Positions 2,725 through 51,524 of a stretch of 64,000 bases of DNA are shown in pieces. How positions within the stretch are numbered: the stretch's first letter is position 1; every line of letters starts with the position of its first letter. Origin of the DNA: a virus; the IMG/VR virus record IMGVR_UViG_3300029288_006769, positions 58,367-122,366 of that record, one strand, 5' to 3'. The notes under the pieces are model-generated. The model searched no databases. It was given only the letters and a program-made list of their open reading frames with translations, and was not told the origin of the DNA. The translations under genes were made by a program, and so were the position numbers.

Positions 2725-3075
2725 ATGAACAACAAGTTTGAATTCGTTATCAATCAAAAAATAATTAAGACTGAAGATATAAAAAATGATTTTTTCAAAA
2801 TCGAGACTGAAGACTTAAATTCTTTTTCCATGGATAGAGACATTCAAACTGTTAGATCAGTAAGTGGTCTTGCAATCGATATGCTTCCAGGGCCTCTAAC
2901 CTATACATTTACTTTAATACTTTCTCCCAAAAAATTCCCAAATCTTTTAGAACGACTCACAAAGAATCAAGGTGTTCTATATCAAGACAAATTATTTTGG
3001 GTCACTCAATGGAATTACGAGCACAACACAAACGATCTAGAGTACAAAATAGTGTTAGAATGTATCGCCAGATGA
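2725..3075 (+). CDS. Hypothetical protein
   Basis: 116-aa ORF filling an otherwise noncoding 300-bp gap. No motifs. Confidence 0.3.
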   Translation: MNNKFEFVINQKIIKTEDIKNDFFKIETEDLNSFSMDRDIQTVRSVSGLAIDMLPGPLTYTFTLILSPKKFPNLLERLTKNQGVLYQDKLFWVTQWNYEHNTNDLEYKIVLECIAR

Positions 3076-3393
3076 ATCTTCTTGTGTTTTCATCTTCATG
3101 ATACCAATTTGCGCTATTAAGAACAATATACATTCTTCGAGAACAACTTCACTGTCTCTCTGCGTATCCAAAGGAATTGTAGCTGTTATAGGTACTTCAT
3201 TGGAAGTAATAAACACACTTATCTCAAAAGCAGGTTCAGATAGCAAGCCTAATGAATCCGAAGTGCAGTCTTTATGATATTCAAGCATATTAAGAGATAC
3301 CGAAGCATGCTCTCCCGTCTGCTCTAAAATAGTATCCTGTATTTCATGCATTGTATCGAAAACTGTAGACAGAAAATTGCTCGAAACGTTCAT
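3055..3393 (-). CDS. Hypothetical acidic protein
   Basis: 112-aa ORF with RBS aagaggagg 4 nt upstream of the ATG at 3393. Confidence 0.4.
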   Translation of the reverse strand: MNVSSNFLSTVFDTMHEIQDTILEQTGEHASVSLNMLEYHKDCTSDSLGLLSEPAFEISVFITSNEVPITATIPLDTQRDSEVVLEECILFLIAQIGIMKMKTQEDSSGDTF

Positions 3394-3474
3394 ATTTCCT
3401 CCTCTTTTGTTTTATATATCGCTCAAATGCGAATAGGGAGCCAAAAGACTCCCTAAATAATTACAAAAAACGAA

Positions 3475-4422
3475 TCACCAAGAAGTAATGGAACTTGTTT
3501 GAGCGCCTGTAGAGAAATCGAGAGAAACCTTTGCATGGTCTCCAAAACGAACTAAAATATCAGTATCAGCTAGATTTTGTACAACAGTAATTGATGTTGT
3601 TCTGCCAATATGTTTAGTTCCAGGTTTATTCCAGAATTTTACAGCAGCTGAACTTGCACCATAATTAGTATCTGATGTTCCTTCAAAATCAACGCCAAAA
3701 GTTACAGCTGAATGATACGCAAAGTTACTAAGTGTTTGTCCTGACGCATTGCCATTATCAATTACACCAACAGTAGCTAATTTGATTCCATACGTAATGT
3801 TGTGTGATACTGCTTTATTTCCTCTAGCAAGTACATCAGCCTGTGTTGCATATCCGTTGTTCTCAGAATAAGCACCAGTATTTACTGCAAAACTTTCAAG
3901 TAAATAAATATCACGTGAGTCAAGTAGAGCTACATGTAGATCAGGATTGAATATAGAATTCGGGTATGAAGCATCATTAGTTGTTCCGATAATATGATCC
4001 ATGTTCCATGCATTTACAAAACATTTTTTTGCATAAGTTTTTGAACGAACATGTTGAACACAGGCGTTTTGTTCGTCTCTTGTAGTACCGTAATCGTAAC
4101 CTGCTTCATCAATAAAGATACCATTGACTTGTAATGTATCCCATTGATTGACTTTCGTTTGAAAATCAGCAATGTCTTGATTAGCTGATACATACCCATA
4201 GATTTCCATGTCAGGCTTGATTGCTTTTAGCCTTGCAATAATTATTTGAGTATTGGCATAATCGGGATGTGATGAATCCTGAATGCCGTCACCAAAGACG
4301 CAAATGTCATATTTTGCCATGTCCATGGCAACATTTTCATTGTTCCAGCCGTTTGTAGCACTGTTGAATGAATTTAGATAGCCGTAATAGAACAATACGT
4401 TTTGAGGACGTGCACTAGCCAT
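3475..4422 (-). CDS. Putative TIM-barrel glycoside-hydrolase-like protein
   Basis: 315-aa ORF with alternating beta/alpha-like pattern and acidic motifs (GIFIDEAGYDYG, YLLESFAV), suggesting a GH114/GHL-type fold. The family assignment is tentative. Confidence 0.3.
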   Translation of the reverse strand: MASARPQNVLFYYGYLNSFNSATNGWNNENVAMDMAKYDICVFGDGIQDSSHPDYANTQIIIARLKAIKPDMEIYGYVSANQDIADFQTKVNQWDTLQVNGIFIDEAGYDYGTTRDEQNACVQHVRSKTYAKKCFVNAWNMDHIIGTTNDASYPNSIFNPDLHVALLDSRDIYLLESFAVNTGAYSENNGYATQADVLARGNKAVSHNITYGIKLATVGVIDNGNASGQTLSNFAYHSAVTFGVDFEGTSDTNYGASSAAVKFWNKPGTKHIGRTTSITVVQNLADTDILVRFGDHAKVSLDFSTGAQTSSITSW

Positions 4423-5641: not shown

Positions 5642-7003
5642 CTATTGTTTAAGTGAAAATTTTATTTCAACACGCATCTTCTTTGTCTGTTCAAATCTTA
5701 CAATATTTTCTTTTATAACATACTTCAAATCAGTTTTAATTTCGTATTTGTATTTTGCTGGTACAAAAATTTCTGTTGTGCCCGAAACAGTAGCATCATA
5801 ATCGCATTCAAAACAAAAAGTGTTATTCTTAATATACCATTTAGGATTAGAACCTGCAATTCTTTGTGGGTATATTCTTACAAGCTCTTCAAGATATTCT
5901 CTTTCATTACCATTATTATCGATCAAACCTTGCCCGCTATAAACCTCTTTATCATAACAATACCATAACCAGTTGATTTTATGTTTGTCTGCTGCTTCAA
6001 CCATATCTCTTACAAATGACATATAGTCTTTAACTGTAGTAGAAATTCCTATTTCTCCAATCAATGCTGGGCTGTTCAGTTTTCTTGCTTCTACAGTTTT
6101 AGATCTGAATGCTGTTTTTGCAAGTAATCTGTTGAACCAGTTATAATTACCTTTATTGTGACAGAAAGGAGGATAATAATGTGGCATGTGAACATTTCTG
6201 GTTCCAAACAATTTCGAATCTAAATTTGTAGGAGTACCTGTGCTTGTTAATATCCAAGATTCAAAAAACAATGTTTTAGAGAAATCTTTAACAGAAGACG
6301 TAATTTTCATTTTTGAATACAAGTCGTTCAAATACTTTTTTTCAAATCTCCAAATGAACGGGAAATTCGGGAAAGGTTCGTTTAGAACGTCAATTCCTAT
6401 CACATTCTTACAGTCTTTTAAAGAATATTGTACGAAATTTACAAGTTCAACATATTTGTTTTTCAGTTCATCATTTTTCCAGAAATATTTATAACAGTCC
6501 ATGACTGCAGGAGTAAAGTAATTTTTCCACCATGGGGTTGCTGGTTTGAATGGATGTTTTTCTGGAGGTAGAGCCCATTCAGGAAAACCATTCCCAGTGA
6601 ATTTTCTGCTATAAAGATCTTGATGCAGATCGACAATTACATCGATTCCAAGTTTTTCAAGGATTGAAATATGTTCTTTGACTTTATTAAGGTATTCTGT
6701 ATTGTATTTGTTTTTTTCAGGTTCAATAGCTTCCCAGAAAACAAGAAAACGAACAAGATTAAATCCCCAATTTTTGAGCCGAGCATAATCTTGTTCCGTA
6801 TGCCATGGTAGAAAGTCTGGTAAAGCTGTTTTTGCATAGTTGCAAATATTGACACCCCTATAAATTTTTATCCTATTATAAGAGTCTCTAAAATATGTTT
6901 CTTTTTTGAAATTGGGTAGACCTAAAAAACGCCAGACATAAAGTAGCAATTGAAAAAGGATAGGAGCAGCTAGTACAGCAACAACTAAAAAAACATAGTT
7001 CAT
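5642..7003 (-). CDS. Glycoside hydrolase family 5 (cellulase-like), membrane-anchored
   Basis: N-terminal TM segment. GH5 motifs: NLVRF..FWEAIEP, catalytic acid in VLNEPF, nucleophile in LIGEIGIS. Confidence 0.7.
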   Translation of the reverse strand: MNYVFLVVAVLAAPILFQLLLYVWRFLGLPNFKKETYFRDSYNRIKIYRGVNICNYAKTALPDFLPWHTEQDYARLKNWGFNLVRFLVFWEAIEPEKNKYNTEYLNKVKEHISILEKLGIDVIVDLHQDLYSRKFTGNGFPEWALPPEKHPFKPATPWWKNYFTPAVMDCYKYFWKNDELKNKYVELVNFVQYSLKDCKNVIGIDVLNEPFPNFPFIWRFEKKYLNDLYSKMKITSSVKDFSKTLFFESWILTSTGTPTNLDSKLFGTRNVHMPHYYPPFCHNKGNYNWFNRLLAKTAFRSKTVEARKLNSPALIGEIGISTTVKDYMSFVRDMVEAADKHKINWLWYCYDKEVYSGQGLIDNNGNEREYLEELVRIYPQRIAGSNPKWYIKNNTFCFECDYDATVSGTTEIFVPAKYKYEIKTDLKYVIKENIVRFEQTKKMRVEIKFSLKQ

Positions 7004-46228: not shown

Positions 46229-46717
46229 GACATCTTTTGAAGACAACTCTAAAGCCAAAAAATGCTTTACTAAAGTTTGTTTTGGTTTTGAACACGTTTC
46301 TTCTTTAAATTCACTCAAATCTTCAAATCTTGCTATAGTGTTTTTACCCGCATGTCCATACTTAACAAGTAATTCTTTATAAATCTCTATTGCTTCAGAA
46401 ATTTGTTTGCTATCTGTTATAGTCGAAAAACTCCCTCCAACATTTGCATCAAATCTTACATTACCTCCACTTGGAGGATAATAACTCATAAAAAACCAAG
46501 AAATGTTTCCCGATAAGTCTCCACCACGTGCTGAAGCATCAAACCGCCAATCTTTGCTTCCTGTTAACCAACAACTATCATTTGTGATCTGTATGAACCA
46601 AACATGATCTTCATCGTCAAATTTAATATCACAATTTTGTGTATTAGCTTCTCTTTGCATTTTGTGTAGAATAGGTAATACTTCGCCTGCTGGCATTTTT
46701 CGTATATCACACATCAT
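46199..46717 (-). CDS. Hypothetical protein
   Basis: 172-aa ORF. Confidence 0.4.
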   Translation of the reverse strand: MMCDIRKMPAGEVLPILHKMQREANTQNCDIKFDDEDHVWFIQITNDSCWLTGSKDWRFDASARGGDLSGNISWFFMSYYPPSGGNVRFDANVGGSFSTITDSKQISEAIEIYKELLVKYGHAGKNTIARFEDLSEFKEETCSKPKQTLVKHFLALELSSKDVLSKLRKLFQ

Positions 46718-46914
46718 GATCTATCTGCCTCGTATATTTGTTCTATATCGTAAGTTGACTTGTCGAAATACTTAATCACAATTCGTTTCCATAAACGATA
46801 AGGCATTTTTCCACGTCGAACTCCCAAACCATTACATGCACCACATTTTGGAGAATTTTTCGAGTCATAGTATCCAGAACCGCCACATGCGGAGCAGATC
46901 TTGACTCGTTTCAT
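46714..46914 (-). CDS. DnaJ-type CxxCxGxG zinc-finger small protein
   Basis: CSACGGSG...CGACNGLG. Confidence 0.4.
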   Translation of the reverse strand: MKRVKICSACGGSGYYDSKNSPKCGACNGLGVRRGKMPYRLWKRIVIKYFDKSTYDIEQIYEADRS

Positions 46915-47432
46915 TTATTATACCACTCAAAAGTTTTTGCTACTATAAAATCGTTATTGGATAATTCGATTTTAACAGTAACAATTTTGTGGCTTCCATC
47001 TGAAGGAAGGAAATCATTAGTATACCCACTACCCATAAAACTAGTCAAGATTTCATTTTCGACAAATGATTGCCGATACTTTTTTTGCCATTCAAGATCA
47101 AAAACATAATCATATTCTGAACGAGCAAAAGGCCCAACTCGATAAACCGAAGAATCATTTGTCTGAATAGCTACAGGGAGCAAACCATAATAAATATTCC
47201 CATTTAAGAAAGGACATTCGTATTTTGCTGATTGTACGAGCAAATCTTGATCGCGGACGTCAAGTCTCCGTAAAGTGAGAAAAGGGTCAAAATGCCCATA
47301 GAATGTCAATGGAAACATTAACGACTTAACATCATCGAATTCAAAATAACTATGGATCAATCTCCCGTTGTCAAAAATGAAATCACCAATTTCAGGTTGA
47401 AATTTCTCCTGTTGTTGCTTGACCGTTATCAT
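46911..47432 (-). CDS. Hypothetical protein
   Basis: 173-aa ORF. Confidence 0.4.
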   Translation of the reverse strand: MITVKQQQEKFQPEIGDFIFDNGRLIHSYFEFDDVKSLMFPLTFYGHFDPFLTLRRLDVRDQDLLVQSAKYECPFLNGNIYYGLLPVAIQTNDSSVYRVGPFARSEYDYVFDLEWQKKYRQSFVENEILTSFMGSGYTNDFLPSDGSHKIVTVKIELSNNDFIVAKTFEWYNK

Positions 47433-47598
47433 TTTGAATTCCTTTCTCTACATCATTTTTTCTTGCTCGAGCTTCTTGATCAGCTTTTTTCTTTGCTTCT
47501 CTATTTTCTTTGATCATTTTCATCACTTCTTTGATTGATGCGTTTATCTCTCTGTTTTTTGCACCCAATTTCTTCAAGTTACGCACGACTTCAGCCAT
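47392..47598 (-). CDS. Small basic coiled-coil protein
   Basis: 68 aa, K/E-rich. Confidence 0.3.
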   Translation of the reverse strand: MAEVVRNLKKLGAKNREINASIKEVMKMIKENREAKKKADQEARARKNDVEKGIQNDNGQATTGEIST

Positions 47599-47620
47599 TG
47601 AATTTCTCCTATAAAAAGGT

Positions 47621-48301
47621 TCATAAAGGATATGTCCTCTTTATATACTCAATGGCTTGATCTCGAGTAAACAGTTTCTCTTCTAATTGCTGGTCTTGTA
47701 CGTCGTCTAACATAGTTCTAAATGTAGGCCCCTTGAGATAACCCATAGAAATCAAATCGTACCCTGTTACAAGACGGGGAAGCTTGTCGAGCTTCACAGT
47801 CTCTGGAGTAGCTTCAAAATCTTTGAGTTTACTTTTCATAAATTCATAATGCTCAAGTCCACCATGAGATGACATGCAATCAACCCTATGCAGCTCAAGA
47901 TGCTCGTAAAACTTGGGCAAATTCATAAACCGCTTGAGCTTAGAAACTCTCATTTTCTCAGCTACAGGAAATTTCATGTGATGCTCGACCATAGAAACAA
48001 CATGATCTACGAATTCGTTCGAAAACTTGAGTCTTTTGAGAATCTCTTCAGCCATGTATTTCCCCTTAGAATCATGACCACTAAAACGTATTCGATCCTC
48101 AAAAGTTTGAGTTGGCGGCTTACCAACATCATGGAGAAAGACGCCCCATAATAGAGTATCCGAAGCATTTTCAGGAAGTAATCCGAGGGCTTTTATGGTA
48201 TGCTCCCAGACGTCACCAGGATACATTTTGTATTTTGATGTGTCTTGATGATCTGGGTTGTTGATGTCAAAAGTTTCGAAAGGGCCAAGATTTTCATTCA
48301 T
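47621..48301 (-). CDS. CCA-adding enzyme C-terminal (neck/body) fragment
   Basis: YPGDVWEHT is the conserved neck motif. FLHDVGKPPT...FSGHDSKG...RLKF.N matches the CCA/tRNA-NT C-terminal region. It resumes exactly where the head ORF stops. Confidence 0.6.
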   Translation of the reverse strand: MNENLGPFETFDINNPDHQDTSKYKMYPGDVWEHTIKALGLLPENASDTLLWGVFLHDVGKPPTQTFEDRIRFSGHDSKGKYMAEEILKRLKFSNEFVDHVVSMVEHHMKFPVAEKMRVSKLKRFMNLPKFYEHLELHRVDCMSSHGGLEHYEFMKSKLKDFEATPETVKLDKLPRLVTGYDLISMGYLKGPTFRTMLDDVQDQQLEEKLFTRDQAIEYIKRTYPL

Positions 48302-49014
48302 TTAAGATATTCATTTCTAATTGAATCATATTCTACATAGTCTGAAATTAGAAAACAATCAACACTAAAACCTATGTATTTAGGTGTTAGAGTAAATTTA
48401 ACTAATTGTTTTTCATAATCTAAGTTTTCATGTAAATAAACATTAGAACTTATTTGGGCATTTCTATTAATAAAGGTATCAACAATTTCATGACTTGAAT
48501 ATTTTAGTATGATATATTCAAGATCAATAACGGGTAGAATACCTATTTCTGGTAGACAACCAATTCCCGGTGTTTTAATTGGAACAGTAACACTATGTGC
48601 TGCTGCAAGTTTTCTTCTATCTAACAAGAATGGTTTAGATTTTCTATCTTTAATTGTGTCTAAAATACTATCAACAATAAAACCATTAATTGTAATGTAT
48701 GTTTTAATTAAATCACAAGTTATTAATAATCGTTGACAATTTATATCATTGACGAAATAATAAGAAACATGGTTGTAAATTTTAATAGTATCAAAAGTCT
48801 TATTAGAATCTTGACAATAAAAACCTAATGCTTCTAAATAGTACTTTGTTTGCGTTACTTCATCAAGTTTATTGTTCCAACATGTATCTTGTATTTCTTT
48901 TAAACGATCATTATCAAATTCTTGTTCTTTTTCTTTTTCAATAGTATTGACAGGACGAATACAATTAAAAATGACAAAACAGATTATTAACAGATATTTA
49001 AAAAGTCTAAACAT
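48298..49014 (-). CDS. Hypothetical secreted protein within the CCA-gene insertion
   Basis: Signal peptide. Very AT-rich. Confidence 0.35.
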   Translation of the reverse strand: MFRLFKYLLIICFVIFNCIRPVNTIEKEKEQEFDNDRLKEIQDTCWNNKLDEVTQTKYYLEALGFYCQDSNKTFDTIKIYNHVSYYFVNDINCQRLLITCDLIKTYITINGFIVDSILDTIKDRKSKPFLLDRRKLAAAHSVTVPIKTPGIGCLPEIGILPVIDLEYIILKYSSHEIVDTFINRNAQISSNVYLHENLDYEKQLVKFTLTPKYIGFSVDCFLISDYVEYDSIRNEYLK

Positions 49015-50000
49015 TTTTGAATTTCCCTTTCTTGATTGTTTTTATAATCATGTTCCCAAATAATTAACCCTTCAAACCCTTTACTTATTGCTATATCGTG
49101 TTTTGTTTTATCAAACTGCCATATTTGTTCAGCAGTTAATTGGGTATAAGGGTTCGGTTTATCTGTTTCGCAATAAAATAATGGGTTTGCGTGAAACTTG
49201 TCTCCATGGAACTCAATAAACTTCTTTCTAGTGATATTGACAAAATCAAAATTACAATGTGAAAGAAAACAACTGTGTTCATGATTTAATTCAGCAAAAT
49301 AGATTTTTTCGTTTGTCGGAAAATTCAACTTATTATAAATTTTCCAACAAAATTCTTGAGAAATTTTAGAATAATTCTTTTTATTCTCTTGTTTGTTATA
49401 AATTCTAAAATATGAAATTCTCGATATATTTTCTGAACGTTCTTTATGTTTTTGTTTTCCAATTTCTACACCAAATTTTTTTATAAACCAATCAAGAGTA
49501 AAAACTCCCTTAACAGACTCTGAAATTCTGTTTCTCTCTTCTTGAGTTCTCTTCCTGTGCGACTGAGTTTGGAATCTTTTTGAATTTTTTAAACCCAACA
49601 CAATCTTCGCTTTTGTTTCCTCTGATGTTGCTTTTCTTGAATAAGTTTTTCCTGTTGCAGCATTTGAAAGATTTTCTCTAAATTTTTTATATTTTTTTGC
49701 TCCTACGTCTAGCCCATAAACTTTTATAAAGCTTTTTAGACTTACTTTGTCGCCTCCAACTTTTCCAGCTCTACCATTGAATTTTGAAGAACAAGAATTT
49801 GAGCAAAATTTTCCATTAAGAGAAGTTGTTTGATATGTTTTTTTACATTCTTTACAGATTTTTTCAAAAACTTGTATGTTTTTAAATTTGGGATGCTCTA
49901 AGTGCCAATATTCAAAACACTCATTAGAGCAATAAAGACTGCGAGTACCAGTTTTTAAAAAAGGTTTTTCGCAATATCGGCAAAGAATTTCTTTAAACAT
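48987..50000 (-). CDS. Homing-endonuclease-like protein: Zn fingers + NUMOD-like repeats + Vsr/PD-(D/E)XK-like nuclease
   Basis: N-terminal Cys clusters. SEETKAKI / TQEERNRIS NUMOD3-like repeats. C-terminal EFHGDKFH...ISKGFEGLIIWEHD fits the Vsr-like E.DG..WH...GW.V.R.WE pattern. Confidence 0.5.
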   Translation of the reverse strand: MFKEILCRYCEKPFLKTGTRSLYCSNECFEYWHLEHPKFKNIQVFEKICKECKKTYQTTSLNGKFCSNSCSSKFNGRAGKVGGDKVSLKSFIKVYGLDVGAKKYKKFRENLSNAATGKTYSRKATSEETKAKIVLGLKNSKRFQTQSHRKRTQEERNRISESVKGVFTLDWFIKKFGVEIGKQKHKERSENISRISYFRIYNKQENKKNYSKISQEFCWKIYNKLNFPTNEKIYFAELNHEHSCFLSHCNFDFVNITRKKFIEFHGDKFHANPLFYCETDKPNPYTQLTAEQIWQFDKTKHDIAISKGFEGLIIWEHDYKNNQEREIQKCLDFLNIC

Positions 50001-50051
50001 AGCATTTCCTTTTTAAAGAGAAATGCTATAAAGGCAATGCTAAAGAGCATA

Positions 50052-50804
50052 CTATTCTTGCATTATCTTTCTGACTCTTGCACCCTCAGGGTGAAACTGT
50101 GGCGGTTGTTCACATCCAACCATTGCTGTAACTTCAGGTAAAATCTCTGAAAGCAAACCTGTACTAAGAAGCAACTCAAGAGCTCTTCTTTTGTCTTTTA
50201 CCCTGAGAATTTTTGTCGTTTCGTCAGCAATACGTTCTGCTGAAACAGAAACAATTTCATTTGCACGTTGGCATACAGCAAGATATGTATTGGGTTCGAT
50301 TTCAAAACCCAGCCGAGCAGCAAACCGAATAACGCGCATAAGACGCAGTTTATCTTCTTTTATCCTGTCATCAGGGTTTCCTATGAGCCGTATTATCTTT
50401 TGCTTTAAATCAGTCTGACCACCCACGACATCAATAATTTTGTCAGTTAAGGGGTCATAAAACATACCATTGATCGTGAGGTCTCGTCGCCTTGCGTCTT
50501 CCTCTAAAGAAGCGAATTCTATCGAGTCAGGGCGCCGTCCATCTGAATAAACTCCATCGGACCGAAAAGTTGCAACTTCAAATTCTTCTCCATCAACAAT
50601 AACAACAATGACACCAAAAGCTTTTCCGACAGCTACAGTTTTGGGAAACAGAGCTTCTATTTCATTTGGCCTTGCATTAGTGGCTATATCAATGTCATTT
50701 GGCTCAAGACCAAGAAGATAATCCCTTACACACCCACCTGCATAAAGAGCTTGGTAGCCTTGTTCAGATAAAATCTTAATTATTGAAAGAGCTTTAGAAT
50801 TCAT
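50052..50804 (-). CDS. CCA-adding enzyme (class II tRNA nucleotidyltransferase) head-domain fragment
   Basis: GGCVRDYLLG, DIDIAT, RRDLTING and EDKLRLMRVIRFAARLGF are canonical. The ORF ends ...FHPEG + 9 aa, inside the conserved HPEGDVWEHT motif. Confidence 0.8.
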   Translation of the reverse strand: MNSKALSIIKILSEQGYQALYAGGCVRDYLLGLEPNDIDIATNARPNEIEALFPKTVAVGKAFGVIVVIVDGEEFEVATFRSDGVYSDGRRPDSIEFASLEEDARRRDLTINGMFYDPLTDKIIDVVGGQTDLKQKIIRLIGNPDDRIKEDKLRLMRVIRFAARLGFEIEPNTYLAVCQRANEIVSVSAERIADETTKILRVKDKRRALELLLSTGLLSEILPEVTAMVGCEQPPQFHPEGARVRKIMQE

Positions 50805-50914
50805 GTTTTCTTTCTAATTCGTGATTTGACATAAACGGAATAATGCAAATGCTATAAGCACACCTAAACCAAGCAACACAGAAGAAATTAAAAATATCAG
50901 AACAACTGGGTGTT

Positions 50915-51259
50915 TCAACTGTATGCCTCCAAAACGAGTTGATAAAGAATCACTTCGTTCTTTTTGGCTTTGTATATTGCTTCGACTAAAGCACTGGTTT
51001 CTGTGACGTCTATTATTTCTCTATTACCAAAAGAAAGATACTTTATTGTCGAAGGTTCATCAGAATCATGATCAGTCCAAATGCAAGTCTGAAGGCCATC
51101 AACATAATGATGCAATTCTACTATAAGAGCTTCAAGTTTGACTTCATGAAGAAAAACATCGCTGAAACCCGATCCTTCAGAAAGTTCTGCAGAAAGAATG
51201 CTTGCATGGTTTGTGTTTAACTTCACATGCTTCAGTTCTTTATCGTTTGTGATAATCAT
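50915..51259 (-). CDS. Hypothetical protein
   Basis: 114-aa ORF. Confidence 0.35.
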   Translation of the reverse strand: MIITNDKELKHVKLNTNHASILSAELSEGSGFSDVFLHEVKLEALIVELHHYVDGLQTCIWTDHDSDEPSTIKYLSFGNREIIDVTETSALVEAIYKAKKNEVILYQLVLEAYS

Positions 51260-51269
51260 TTGTTTTCTC

Positions 51270-51524
51270 CTACTTTATTGTACTCAATTCTTTATTTAGC
51301 TCTTTATGAGCTAAAGGTACGACCCTTTTTATTCCTGCCATGACTAAAGCGACTCTAGATCGTATGAATGATGAATTAACTGAAACTCCAGTAAATGTTC
51401 GTTTATCAAGCAAATATGACATAGGGATTGCATAATTAGAAGCCCTCCAGTCAGGGTTTGCTTTTTCAACTTCTTTATAAAGCCTTTTGACAAAAGCTTT
51501 CAACTTTTCAGGTTTGTCATCCAT
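51270..51524 (-). CDS. Hypothetical protein
   Basis: 84-aa ORF. Confidence 0.3.
   Translation of the reverse strand: MDDKPEKLKAFVKRLYKEVEKANPDWRASNYAIPMSYLLDKRTFTGVSVNSSFIRSRVALVMAGIKRVVPLAHKELNKELSTIK

Follow-up and report, generated by a model that had tools for sequence, protein, structure and literature searches.

A phage CCA-adding enzyme gene probably fractured by a Vsr-like homing-endonuclease cassette

In the IMG/VR virus record IMGVR_UViG_3300029288_006769, the gene for a class II CCA-adding enzyme is found in two pieces with a homing-endonuclease gene between them, and the question raised by this locus is whether, and how, the two pieces still provide one enzyme. The phage genome is approximately 424 kb in size and the data covered 64 kb of it (positions 58,367 to 122,366 of the record), hereafter called the window. 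All coordinates are those of the window, unless another locus is named, and the divided gene lies on its minus strand; L and P codes designate homologous loci and proteins from viral and metagenome contigs. The results described below indicate that this is probably an endonuclease-fractured CCA gene, from which two polypeptides are made and no splicing takes place.

The divided gene and its cassette

The upstream open reading frame (ORF), the N-half (positions 50052 to 50804, 250 amino acids), comprises the head and neck of the enzyme, its native part running from 50804 to 50082 and ending in HPEG. Pfam matches were obtained to the PolyA_pol head (PF01743, 1e-38) and to PolyA_pol_RNAbd (PF12627, 6e-16), together with an NCBIfam match to the CCA tRNA nucleotidyltransferase NF009814 (1e-75). 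The motifs GGCVRD, DIDIAT, RRDLTING and EDKLRLMR are all present and correspond to the class II head signature (GGxVRD...DxD, RRD, EDxxR). The downstream ORF, the C-half (47621 to 48301, 226 amino acids, native part from 48217), carries the HD/body and tail domains, with matches to HD (PF01966, 4e-9) and tRNA_NucTran2_2 (PF13735, 5e-6) in Pfam and to HDIG (TIGR00277) in NCBIfam. The N-half ends with ...QPPQFHPEG-ARVRKIMQE and a stop codon, and the C-half begins with MNENLGPFETFDINNPDHQDTSKYKMYPG-DVWEHT, in which DVWEHT starts at residue 30.

When joined at HPEG/DVWEHT, the halves aligned in one piece with the tRNA nucleotidyltransferase of Tunturiibacter phage Tunturi_5 (99% coverage, 43.8% identity), and they showed 78 and 83% identity to the uninterrupted metagenomic genes L001 and P0001, respectively. 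A preliminary description, made from the sequence without database searches, had proposed that one CCA gene is split inside this motif. The alignments with uninterrupted genes bear this out, as the two ORFs are collinear halves and not paralogous fragments. Its junctions were also correct relative to alleles with nothing inserted between the two motifs (called loop-less below): Gly241 is encoded at 50084 to 50082 and Asp30 at 48214 to 48212, and the insertion measures approximately 1867 nucleotides.

Codon-level comparison with L001, L002, L004 and L079 placed the whole inserted cassette at 48218 to 50081, with an ambiguity of one GGT codon at its boundaries; BLAST identity to L079 resumes at 48217. 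The cassette consists, in this order, of a coding tail of the N-half (N-tail), a stop codon, a hairpin, the endonuclease gene, a second ORF (ORF2), a start codon and a coding head of the C-half (C-head). Four minus-strand ORFs (50804 to 50052, 50000 to 48987, 49014 to 48298 and 48301 to 47621) fill the region from 50804 to 47621. Non-coding DNA between the halves amounts to 51 nucleotides, about 97% of the insert being ORF, and the stop codon of ORF2 overlaps the start codon of the C-half in the sequence ATGA. The insert had been described as AT-rich, in agreement with GC contents of 29% for the endonuclease gene and 25% for ORF2; the CCA halves have 40-41%, and the window as a whole has 35%. 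No second CCA gene, second endonuclease copy or tRNA gene was found within the window. A promoter scan gave results no better than those for shuffled sequence, no terminators were found in 47300 to 51300, and megablast of the 3.6-kb region against GenBank phages returned no match.

The gene at 48987 to 50000 (minus strand) encodes a free-standing Vsr-like, EDxHD-type homing endonuclease of 337 amino acids, as identified by homology, AlphaFold2 (AF2) fold and conserved residues. Two CxxC...C zinc-finger-like units come first, a NUMOD3-like helical region follows, and the nuclease domain is C-terminal. Using tblastn, similarity was found to phage genes annotated as VSR endonuclease, e.g. that of Aeromonas phage Aes508 (2e-14), and residues D252, E263, D267, H270, D297, W315 and E316 are invariant or nearly so among 50 homologues. 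A profile of the homologues matched E. coli Vsr among the PDB sequences (E 0.013), with the D...H...D...WE positions aligned. The AF2 model (predicted local distance difference test score, pLDDT, 88.7) consists of helical repeats and two small beta zinc-finger-like units. Its Foldseek matches included the catalytic domain of I-Bth0305I (3R3P_B, prob 0.97, TMt 0.70) and Vsr (1CW0_A, prob 0.96), the E-values (0.2) being weak because the whole multi-domain model served as query. The NUMOD3 score (E 0.009) lies below the Pfam cut-off, and PF07460 is present in several homologues. With phmmer, the protein found nothing among the PDB sequences, and Vsr and I-Bth0305I were reached only via profiles and fold comparison; scanning IMG/VR with degenerate endonuclease peptides yielded no confirmed relative. 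The Vsr-like tail given in the preliminary description is upheld by tblastn, profile and fold match, and the zinc-finger/NUMOD-like N-terminus given there is retained as a putative DNA-binding region. The protein belongs to the Vsr-like/EDxHD family, for which Dassa et al. (2009) and later Taylor et al. (2011) gave descriptions.

Upstream of this gene, a predicted RNA hairpin (49999 to 50029, minus strand) covers a Shine-Dalgarno-like AAGGAAA as well as the A and U of the AUG at which the endonuclease starts; the 91-nucleotide region folds at -20.7 kcal/mol (z -2.2). An equivalent hairpin, with TATAAATA and AAGGAG, precedes the endonuclease gene of locus L074, and the hairpin of the window is without an exact TATAAATA. 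At its 3' end the endonuclease gene overlaps ORF2 by 28 nucleotides. An upstream hairpin and a 3' overlap with the downstream ORF have been reported as features of the Vsr-like family (Dassa et al. 2009, PMC2677866), and the endonuclease of the window shows both, the hairpin lying over its ribosome-binding site and AUG.

Conserved tails, recurrence of the split and mobility

The residues added to each half at the break had been taken to be unrelated sequence. This view could not be maintained, as the 9 + 28 residues recur as conserved sequence in further CCA genes, both split and unsplit. The N-tail, ARVRKIMQE (50055 to 50081, minus strand), is basic with an isoelectric point (pI) of 10.8 and is not found in loop-less CCA genes; its pattern A[RK]V[RKQ]KI is conserved across other split and loop-bearing genes. 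The C-head, MNENLGPFETFDINNPDHQDTSKYKMYP (48218 to 48301, minus strand), is acidic (pI 4.4), and its motif LGPxExxDxxNP[DE]HxDx[ST]KY is likewise conserved across split and loop-bearing genes. A protein search with the 77-amino-acid C-head region alone gave no candidates. Among the 120 closest homologues, 118 are without the loop and read HPEG/DV.EHT directly. Five intact genes carry both tails fused in frame as a loop of 32-38 amino acids, i.e. P0002 (HPEG-ARVRKIFQMNDVNLGPFEIFDIKNLEHLDSTKYKMYPG-DCLEHT), P0007 (HPEG-ARVKKIGQDEFEDFDLKNSEHKDPSKYKLFPG-DVWEHT), L003 (HPEG-AKVKNIITNVIEDYNPQNQEHLDDTKYLMVKKG-NVLDHT), L021 and L034. Since these loops match the tails of the window, the non-CCA DNA of the window sits inside the loop, between ...RKIMQ and MNE.... 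The P0002 loop retains an internal QMND where the split C-halves begin, and this Met-Asn-Asp favours a re-fusion after the split for the P0002 allele.

Further split loci were sought by scanning viral and metagenome contigs for DNA encoding HPEGA[RK]V[RKQ]K and by inspection of the contexts of endonuclease homologues. Eight further loci with the same break were found: six with related endonuclease genes, one with an endonuclease remnant (L042) and one with terminators (L007). Two of the eight, L017 and L062, have matching CCA-flanking sequences as far as these were compared; the contigs were not compared base by base. In L011 (identical to L073) the halves are separated by an endonuclease of 326 amino acids with 51% identity to that of the window, and in L017, L062, L025, L074 and L077 by related endonucleases with the same C-terminal nuclease domain and partly different N-termini. 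In L042 (Ga0315285_10013524) the gap is 79 nucleotides long and holds a mini-ORF of 26 codons, MKNCLFCNKPFNPKNKWHHCVEFIQG (MKNCLFCNKPF...HCVEFIQG, then stop). As the zinc-finger start of the endonuclease is here fused to its ...KC.EF... end, L042 represents an internally deleted endonuclease gene with the split retained. In L007 (IMGVR_UViG_3300037086_000474, its positions 981-1560) an intrinsic terminator, an ORF of 126 amino acids and a second intrinsic terminator lie between the halves. This small, unrelated ORF takes the place of an endonuclease gene; its product begins in a coiled-coil-like manner and has a tail rich in Pro, Ala and Thr. At all split loci the N-half stops 6-10 residues past HPEG, and the C-half has 23-48 residues ahead of [DNT][VA]..H. 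Intact halves have been kept across loci whose host genes are 27-63% identical, also after loss of the endonuclease gene (L042, L007).

A basic N-tail (pI 8.6-12) is combined with an acidic C-head (pI 4.2-5.6) in six of eight split loci, and the tails are mostly 40-57% identical in pairs of host genes with 27-35% identity. The AF2 model of the loop-bearing homologue P0002 (pLDDT 90.7, predicted template modelling score 0.88) matched the class II CCA enzymes 6QY6 and 1MIV (E 1e-21, TMt 0.84; seahorse fold). Its loop is modelled as a strand (RVRK, 244-247), a short helix (LEHL, 267-270) and a second strand (YKMY, 275-278). As the natural split falls just after the first loop strand, each half would carry one strand. 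In comparison with unsplit L079, the N-half has a ratio of nonsynonymous to synonymous substitution rates (dN/dS) of 0.11 and the C-half one of 0.08, and judging from these ratios both halves are under purifying selection.

In a neighbour-joining tree constructed with the loop masked, split and loop-bearing alleles do not group together and often have loop-less sisters. Over ungapped columns, identity reaches 90% between the window and loop-less P0001 and 93% between L042 and loop-less P0032. The contig that carries P0001, L079 (Ga0378408_0000018, 422 kb), is syntenic with the window and is without the whole cassette. The two sequences are 100% identical from 47552 to 42420 (5.1 kb), the last mismatch being situated at 47553, about 70 nucleotides past the CCA stop codon. 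The two coding parts of the CCA gene are 85-88% identical. In exon 1, as the native part of the N-half may be called here, identity is about 91% over the first 420 nucleotides and drops to about 70% beside the insertion. The 6 kb upstream show 67-90% identity in 250-nucleotide bins, and this range holds to at least 57147; for the CCA gene and its upstream side taken together, identity is 68-94%. This pattern is as expected from recombination begun at or near the endonuclease site; a sharp mosaic boundary beside an endonuclease cassette may also be a coincidence. An insertion site common to six loci with divergent host genes, together with the identity boundary adjoining the gene, may point indirectly to site-specific double-strand cleavage of cassette-free alleles and to homing. 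At the insertion site, P0001 (L079, its positions 6700-6730) reads PLEFHKEG instead of the usual PPQFHPEG, the L079-type allele carrying CATAAAGAAGGTGATGTTTGG, and this could be an altered endonuclease target site. Within the block that is 100% identical to L079, an ORF of 66 amino acids (window 46714 to 46914, minus strand) encodes a zinc-finger repeat of the DnaJ type (CXXCXGXG), whose Pfam match (E 3e-4) falls short of the cut-off.

ORF2 (48298 to 49014, minus strand) encodes an orphan protein of 238 amino acids with a hydrophobic N-terminus, has a GC content of 25% and is found only in the cassette of the window, being absent from those of L011, L017, L025, L074 and L077. The label 'secreted' that the preliminary description gave to it is a putative one. 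Among 1.84e9 protein representatives it matched only itself, and no Pfam, PHROG, PADLOC or NCBIfam match was obtained. An open frame of this length at 25% GC is very unlikely to arise by chance (estimate of about 3e-10). Its ATG lies inside the conserved endonuclease codons AAATGY (Lys-Cys), where the C-half of L077 starts. ORF2 may be cargo gained by the endonuclease element. An additional acidic, helical ORF of 63 amino acids between the endonuclease gene and the C-half of L074 (its positions 3890-4081) is further variable cargo.

Relatives of the endonuclease were also observed elsewhere. P0142 (L075/L076, positions 3001-3882), a homologue with 42% identity, is free-standing between HD-domain and DFP/flavoprotein genes in at least 24 contigs, which indicates that this family uses insertion sites besides the CCA gene. 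P0066 (665 amino acids) is a CCA-enzyme homologue called as one protein with an N-terminal GIY-YIG and NUMOD-repeat endonuclease; either this is a gene-call fusion or another endonuclease is located directly upstream of a CCA gene. A NUMOD3 protein of 310 amino acids (L005, 2839-3771), encoded two genes upstream of unsplit, loop-bearing P0002, was considered and found to be unrelated to the endonuclease of the window.

Weighing of the explanations

In the explanation that we favour, a Vsr-like (EDxHD-type) cassette interrupts the gene for the class II CCA-adding enzyme where the neck passes into the body, with HPEG on one side and DVWEHT on the other. Probably no repair takes place at the RNA or protein level, and two polypeptides are made, one with head and neck (including all catalytic motifs) and one with HD/body and tail. 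The cassette itself provides the stop codon, the start codon and two conserved coding tails, namely a basic strand A-R/K-V-R/K-K-I on the N-half and an acidic head of 24-45 amino acids, LGPxExxDxxNPDHxDxTKY..G, on the C-half. Translation of the C-half would probably start by coupling through the ATGA overlap with the upstream ORF, and the endonuclease is probably silenced by the hairpin over its own ribosome-binding site. Spread would occur when the endonuclease cuts cassette-free CCA alleles in co-infecting phages and repair copies the cassette-bearing allele. Later decay of the endonuclease gene would leave a permanently split gene, or an in-frame re-fusion would leave a loop of 32-38 amino acids in an intact gene.

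As for the tails, their most likely role would be to pair and to help the halves reassemble, a proposal on which our confidence is evenly balanced. Purifying selection, the survival of the split after loss of the endonuclease gene and the two predicted AF2 strands speak indirectly for assembly of the halves into an active enzyme. Held more tentatively, and with somewhat less confidence, is the wider idea that the cassette carries a portable two-piece adaptor (basic strand plus acidic NPDHxDxTKY module) with which it breaks an enzyme gene without killing it. This adaptor would travel together with the cassette between divergent CCA alleles and be left behind, as a split gene or as a new loop, after loss of the endonuclease.

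Several points weigh against these proposals. The C-half of the window starts directly after ORF2, not after the endonuclease gene, and is without a clear Shine-Dalgarno sequence. The tails of L074 and L077 are not oppositely charged. The P0002 loop was modelled with moderate confidence (pLDDT 71-83), with four loop-bearing rows behind it, and the pairing of the two loop strands with each other in a small sheet is what this model would suggest. The anatomy of the locus, its homologies, its recurrence and the lack of intron or intein features are shown by the sequences; separate translation, assembly via the tails, activity of the enzyme, and activity and target of the endonuclease are what we infer. 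A second, intact CCA gene may be present elsewhere in the 424-kb genome. The assignment as a CCA-adding enzyme, as opposed to a CC-adding or A-adding enzyme or a poly(A) polymerase, follows the best family matches and is thus a putative one.

The alternative that survives best is itself a variant of the fractured gene, in which the loop came first. A pre-existing surface loop of 32-38 amino acids would have tolerated the landing of the endonuclease gene and would spread as a passenger of co-conversion; the tails would have no special role in assembly, and the halves would meet via the native neck/body interface. Consistent with this, the deepest clade (L077, L034, L017 and L003) is loop-bearing throughout with two members unsplit, and the tails of the comparable split enzyme of Aeromonas phage Aeh1 (see below) are not needed for heterodimer formation itself. 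Tail identity also co-varies with host-gene identity (r 0.72); this correlation does not separate tails that came with the endonuclease from an older, invaded loop that spreads by co-conversion. Nevertheless, nearly all close homologues (118/120) are loop-less, distant pairs show tails that are more conserved than the host protein and usually opposite in charge, and the Met-Asn-Asp of the C-half start within the P0002 loop fits a re-fusion after the split. This variant as a whole is considered rather unlikely.

A dead gene, in which the insertion inactivated the CCA gene and the ORFs are decaying remnants, would be conceivable for a jumbo phage that can use the CCA enzyme of its host, and the window holds no tRNA genes. 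Both halves are, however, of full length with all motifs present, their dN/dS is 0.08-0.11, and the start/stop architecture and the tails are conserved. Intact halves also occur in nine split loci with hosts of 27-63% identity, even where the endonuclease gene has been lost (L042, L007). Inactivation is therefore very unlikely.

Beside its slight preference for a fractured gene, the preliminary description had offered another option, in which the endonuclease ORF lies in a group I intron that is spliced from the mRNA. Group I introns of recA can indeed harbour Vsr-like endonucleases, and the final base of exon 1 is a U. Rfam gave no relevant match across 47900 to 50400 at E<=10, nor in the gap of L007, and nothing in the whole window at gathering thresholds; no group I P3-P9 core was recognised. 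About 97% of the insert is ORF, the ORFs overlap each other, and the residues flanking the break show conservation at the protein level, intact homologues translating them in frame. The 79-nucleotide gap of L042 and the two terminators in that of L007 leave no room for a spliced group I intron. With no Rfam match, 51 non-coding nucleotides and related loci with a short gap or with terminators between the halves, the slight preference for a fractured gene is reinforced and splicing from the mRNA retains next to no probability.

Equally improbable is a split intein, in which protein trans-splicing would ligate the halves, as it does in the fractured genes that Dassa et al. described. The endonuclease family and the gene order are shared with split-intein loci. 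The tails of 6-10 and 23-48 amino acids are, however, well below the size of a HINT domain, and no Hint/intein Pfam match was found. The first tail residue is Ala or Ser and there is no terminal His-Asn (the boundary residues in the window being Ala1 and Pro-Gly/Asp). Behind the C-head stands Asp, Asn or Thr, in most loci not the usual Cys/Ser/Thr nucleophile, and the fused loop stays in the protein of intact genes. A translational bypass of the gene-60 type was rejected because the gap is 1750 nucleotides long and full of ORFs.

Relation to known systems and significance

Fracture by an endonuclease gene is a known kind of event, the precedents being the Aeh1 nrdA/mobE and SbcD-like loci. In the nrdA-a/mobE/nrdA-b arrangement of Aeh1, an enzyme gene is interrupted by a free-standing homing-endonuclease gene, and each of its two parts is an ORF with its own translation (Friedrich et al. 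2007; Crona et al. 2010, PMC3045599). The upstream NrdA fragment has a basic tail and the downstream one an acidic tail, intact homologues being without tails; a hairpin covers the endonuclease ribosome-binding site, and neither RNA nor protein splicing takes place (PMC3045599). The tail solution of NrdA-a/NrdA-b was shown by experiment, the tails being dispensable for heterodimer formation itself (PMC3045599). The locus of the window is alike in its endonuclease ORF between collinear halves with their own stop and start, its short tails, its hairpin and its lack of splicing. It differs in that the endonuclease is Vsr-like/EDxHD and not HNH, and in that the host gene encodes a CCA-adding enzyme and not ribonucleotide reductase. 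Here the tails are conserved over many divergent loci and re-fused in intact genes, as judged from sequence, whereas Aeh1 is a single case.

The second precedent is an SbcD-like gene, fractured without an intein, in which a Vsr-like endonuclease is found and the break carries 25 + 9 amino acids that intact homologues do not have (Dassa et al. 2009, PMC2677866). The endonuclease family, the gene order, the overlap of the endonuclease 3' end with the downstream ORF and the presence of extra residues are shared with the CCA locus. The host gene is different, and the SbcD-like case is one locus from one lake sample, with no evidence of tail conservation or re-fusion. The split-intein fractured genes (gp41, NrdA, NrdJ, DnaE and others; Dassa et al. 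2009) resemble the locus in their order of N-part, endonuclease and C-part, their origin from uncultured phages, their hairpins and their overlaps; there is no intein in the CCA gene, where the tails are too short and without splicing residues.

I-Bth0305I, intron-encoded in recA, is the prototype of the EDxHD homing endonucleases (Taylor et al. 2011, PMC3239194; PDB 3R3P). It has in common with the endonuclease of the window the C-terminal Vsr-like fold, the catalytic Asp/Glu/His and, putatively, an N-terminal modular DNA-binding region with NUMOD-like elements. The protein of the window differs in being free-standing and in having two N-terminal zinc-finger-like units, and it gives no detectable sequence match to 3R3P. 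In the T4 gene 39/mobA/gene 60 topoisomerase, too, an enzyme subunit is split in association with an endonuclease, and Crona et al. noted extensions there that resemble tails (PMC3045599); T4 bypasses a 50-nucleotide gap in translation, and nothing comparable was seen in the CCA gene.

No report of an endonuclease-split CCA-adding enzyme was found in full-text literature searches. In the literature searched, neither this host gene nor a recurrence at a single site is on record, nor are conserved tails or a natural series that runs from intact genes through split and endonuclease-lost ones to re-fused ones.

Endonuclease-split genes that are rescued without splicing have so far been mainly single cases (Aeh1 nrdA, one SbcD-like locus and the T4 topoisomerase). 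The CCA gene adds a new host enzyme and, at one site, a series of alleles: untouched, split with the endonuclease, split with a 26-codon remnant, split with the endonuclease replaced, and re-fused with a scar loop. This series makes testable the proposal of Crona and Edgell that tails borne by the element are a general antidote to gene fragmentation, as well as the cycle of endonuclease gain, decay and loss. The natural split site and the short tail pair of a class II CCA-adding enzyme could serve in the design of split enzymes. For annotation, the locus is a warning that paired ORFs for a poly(A) polymerase head and an HD domain in phages can be one enzyme. If the adaptor reading is true, a selfish element would drive both the fission of a gene and the origin of a new structural element in a conserved enzyme, with all stages of the cycle visible.

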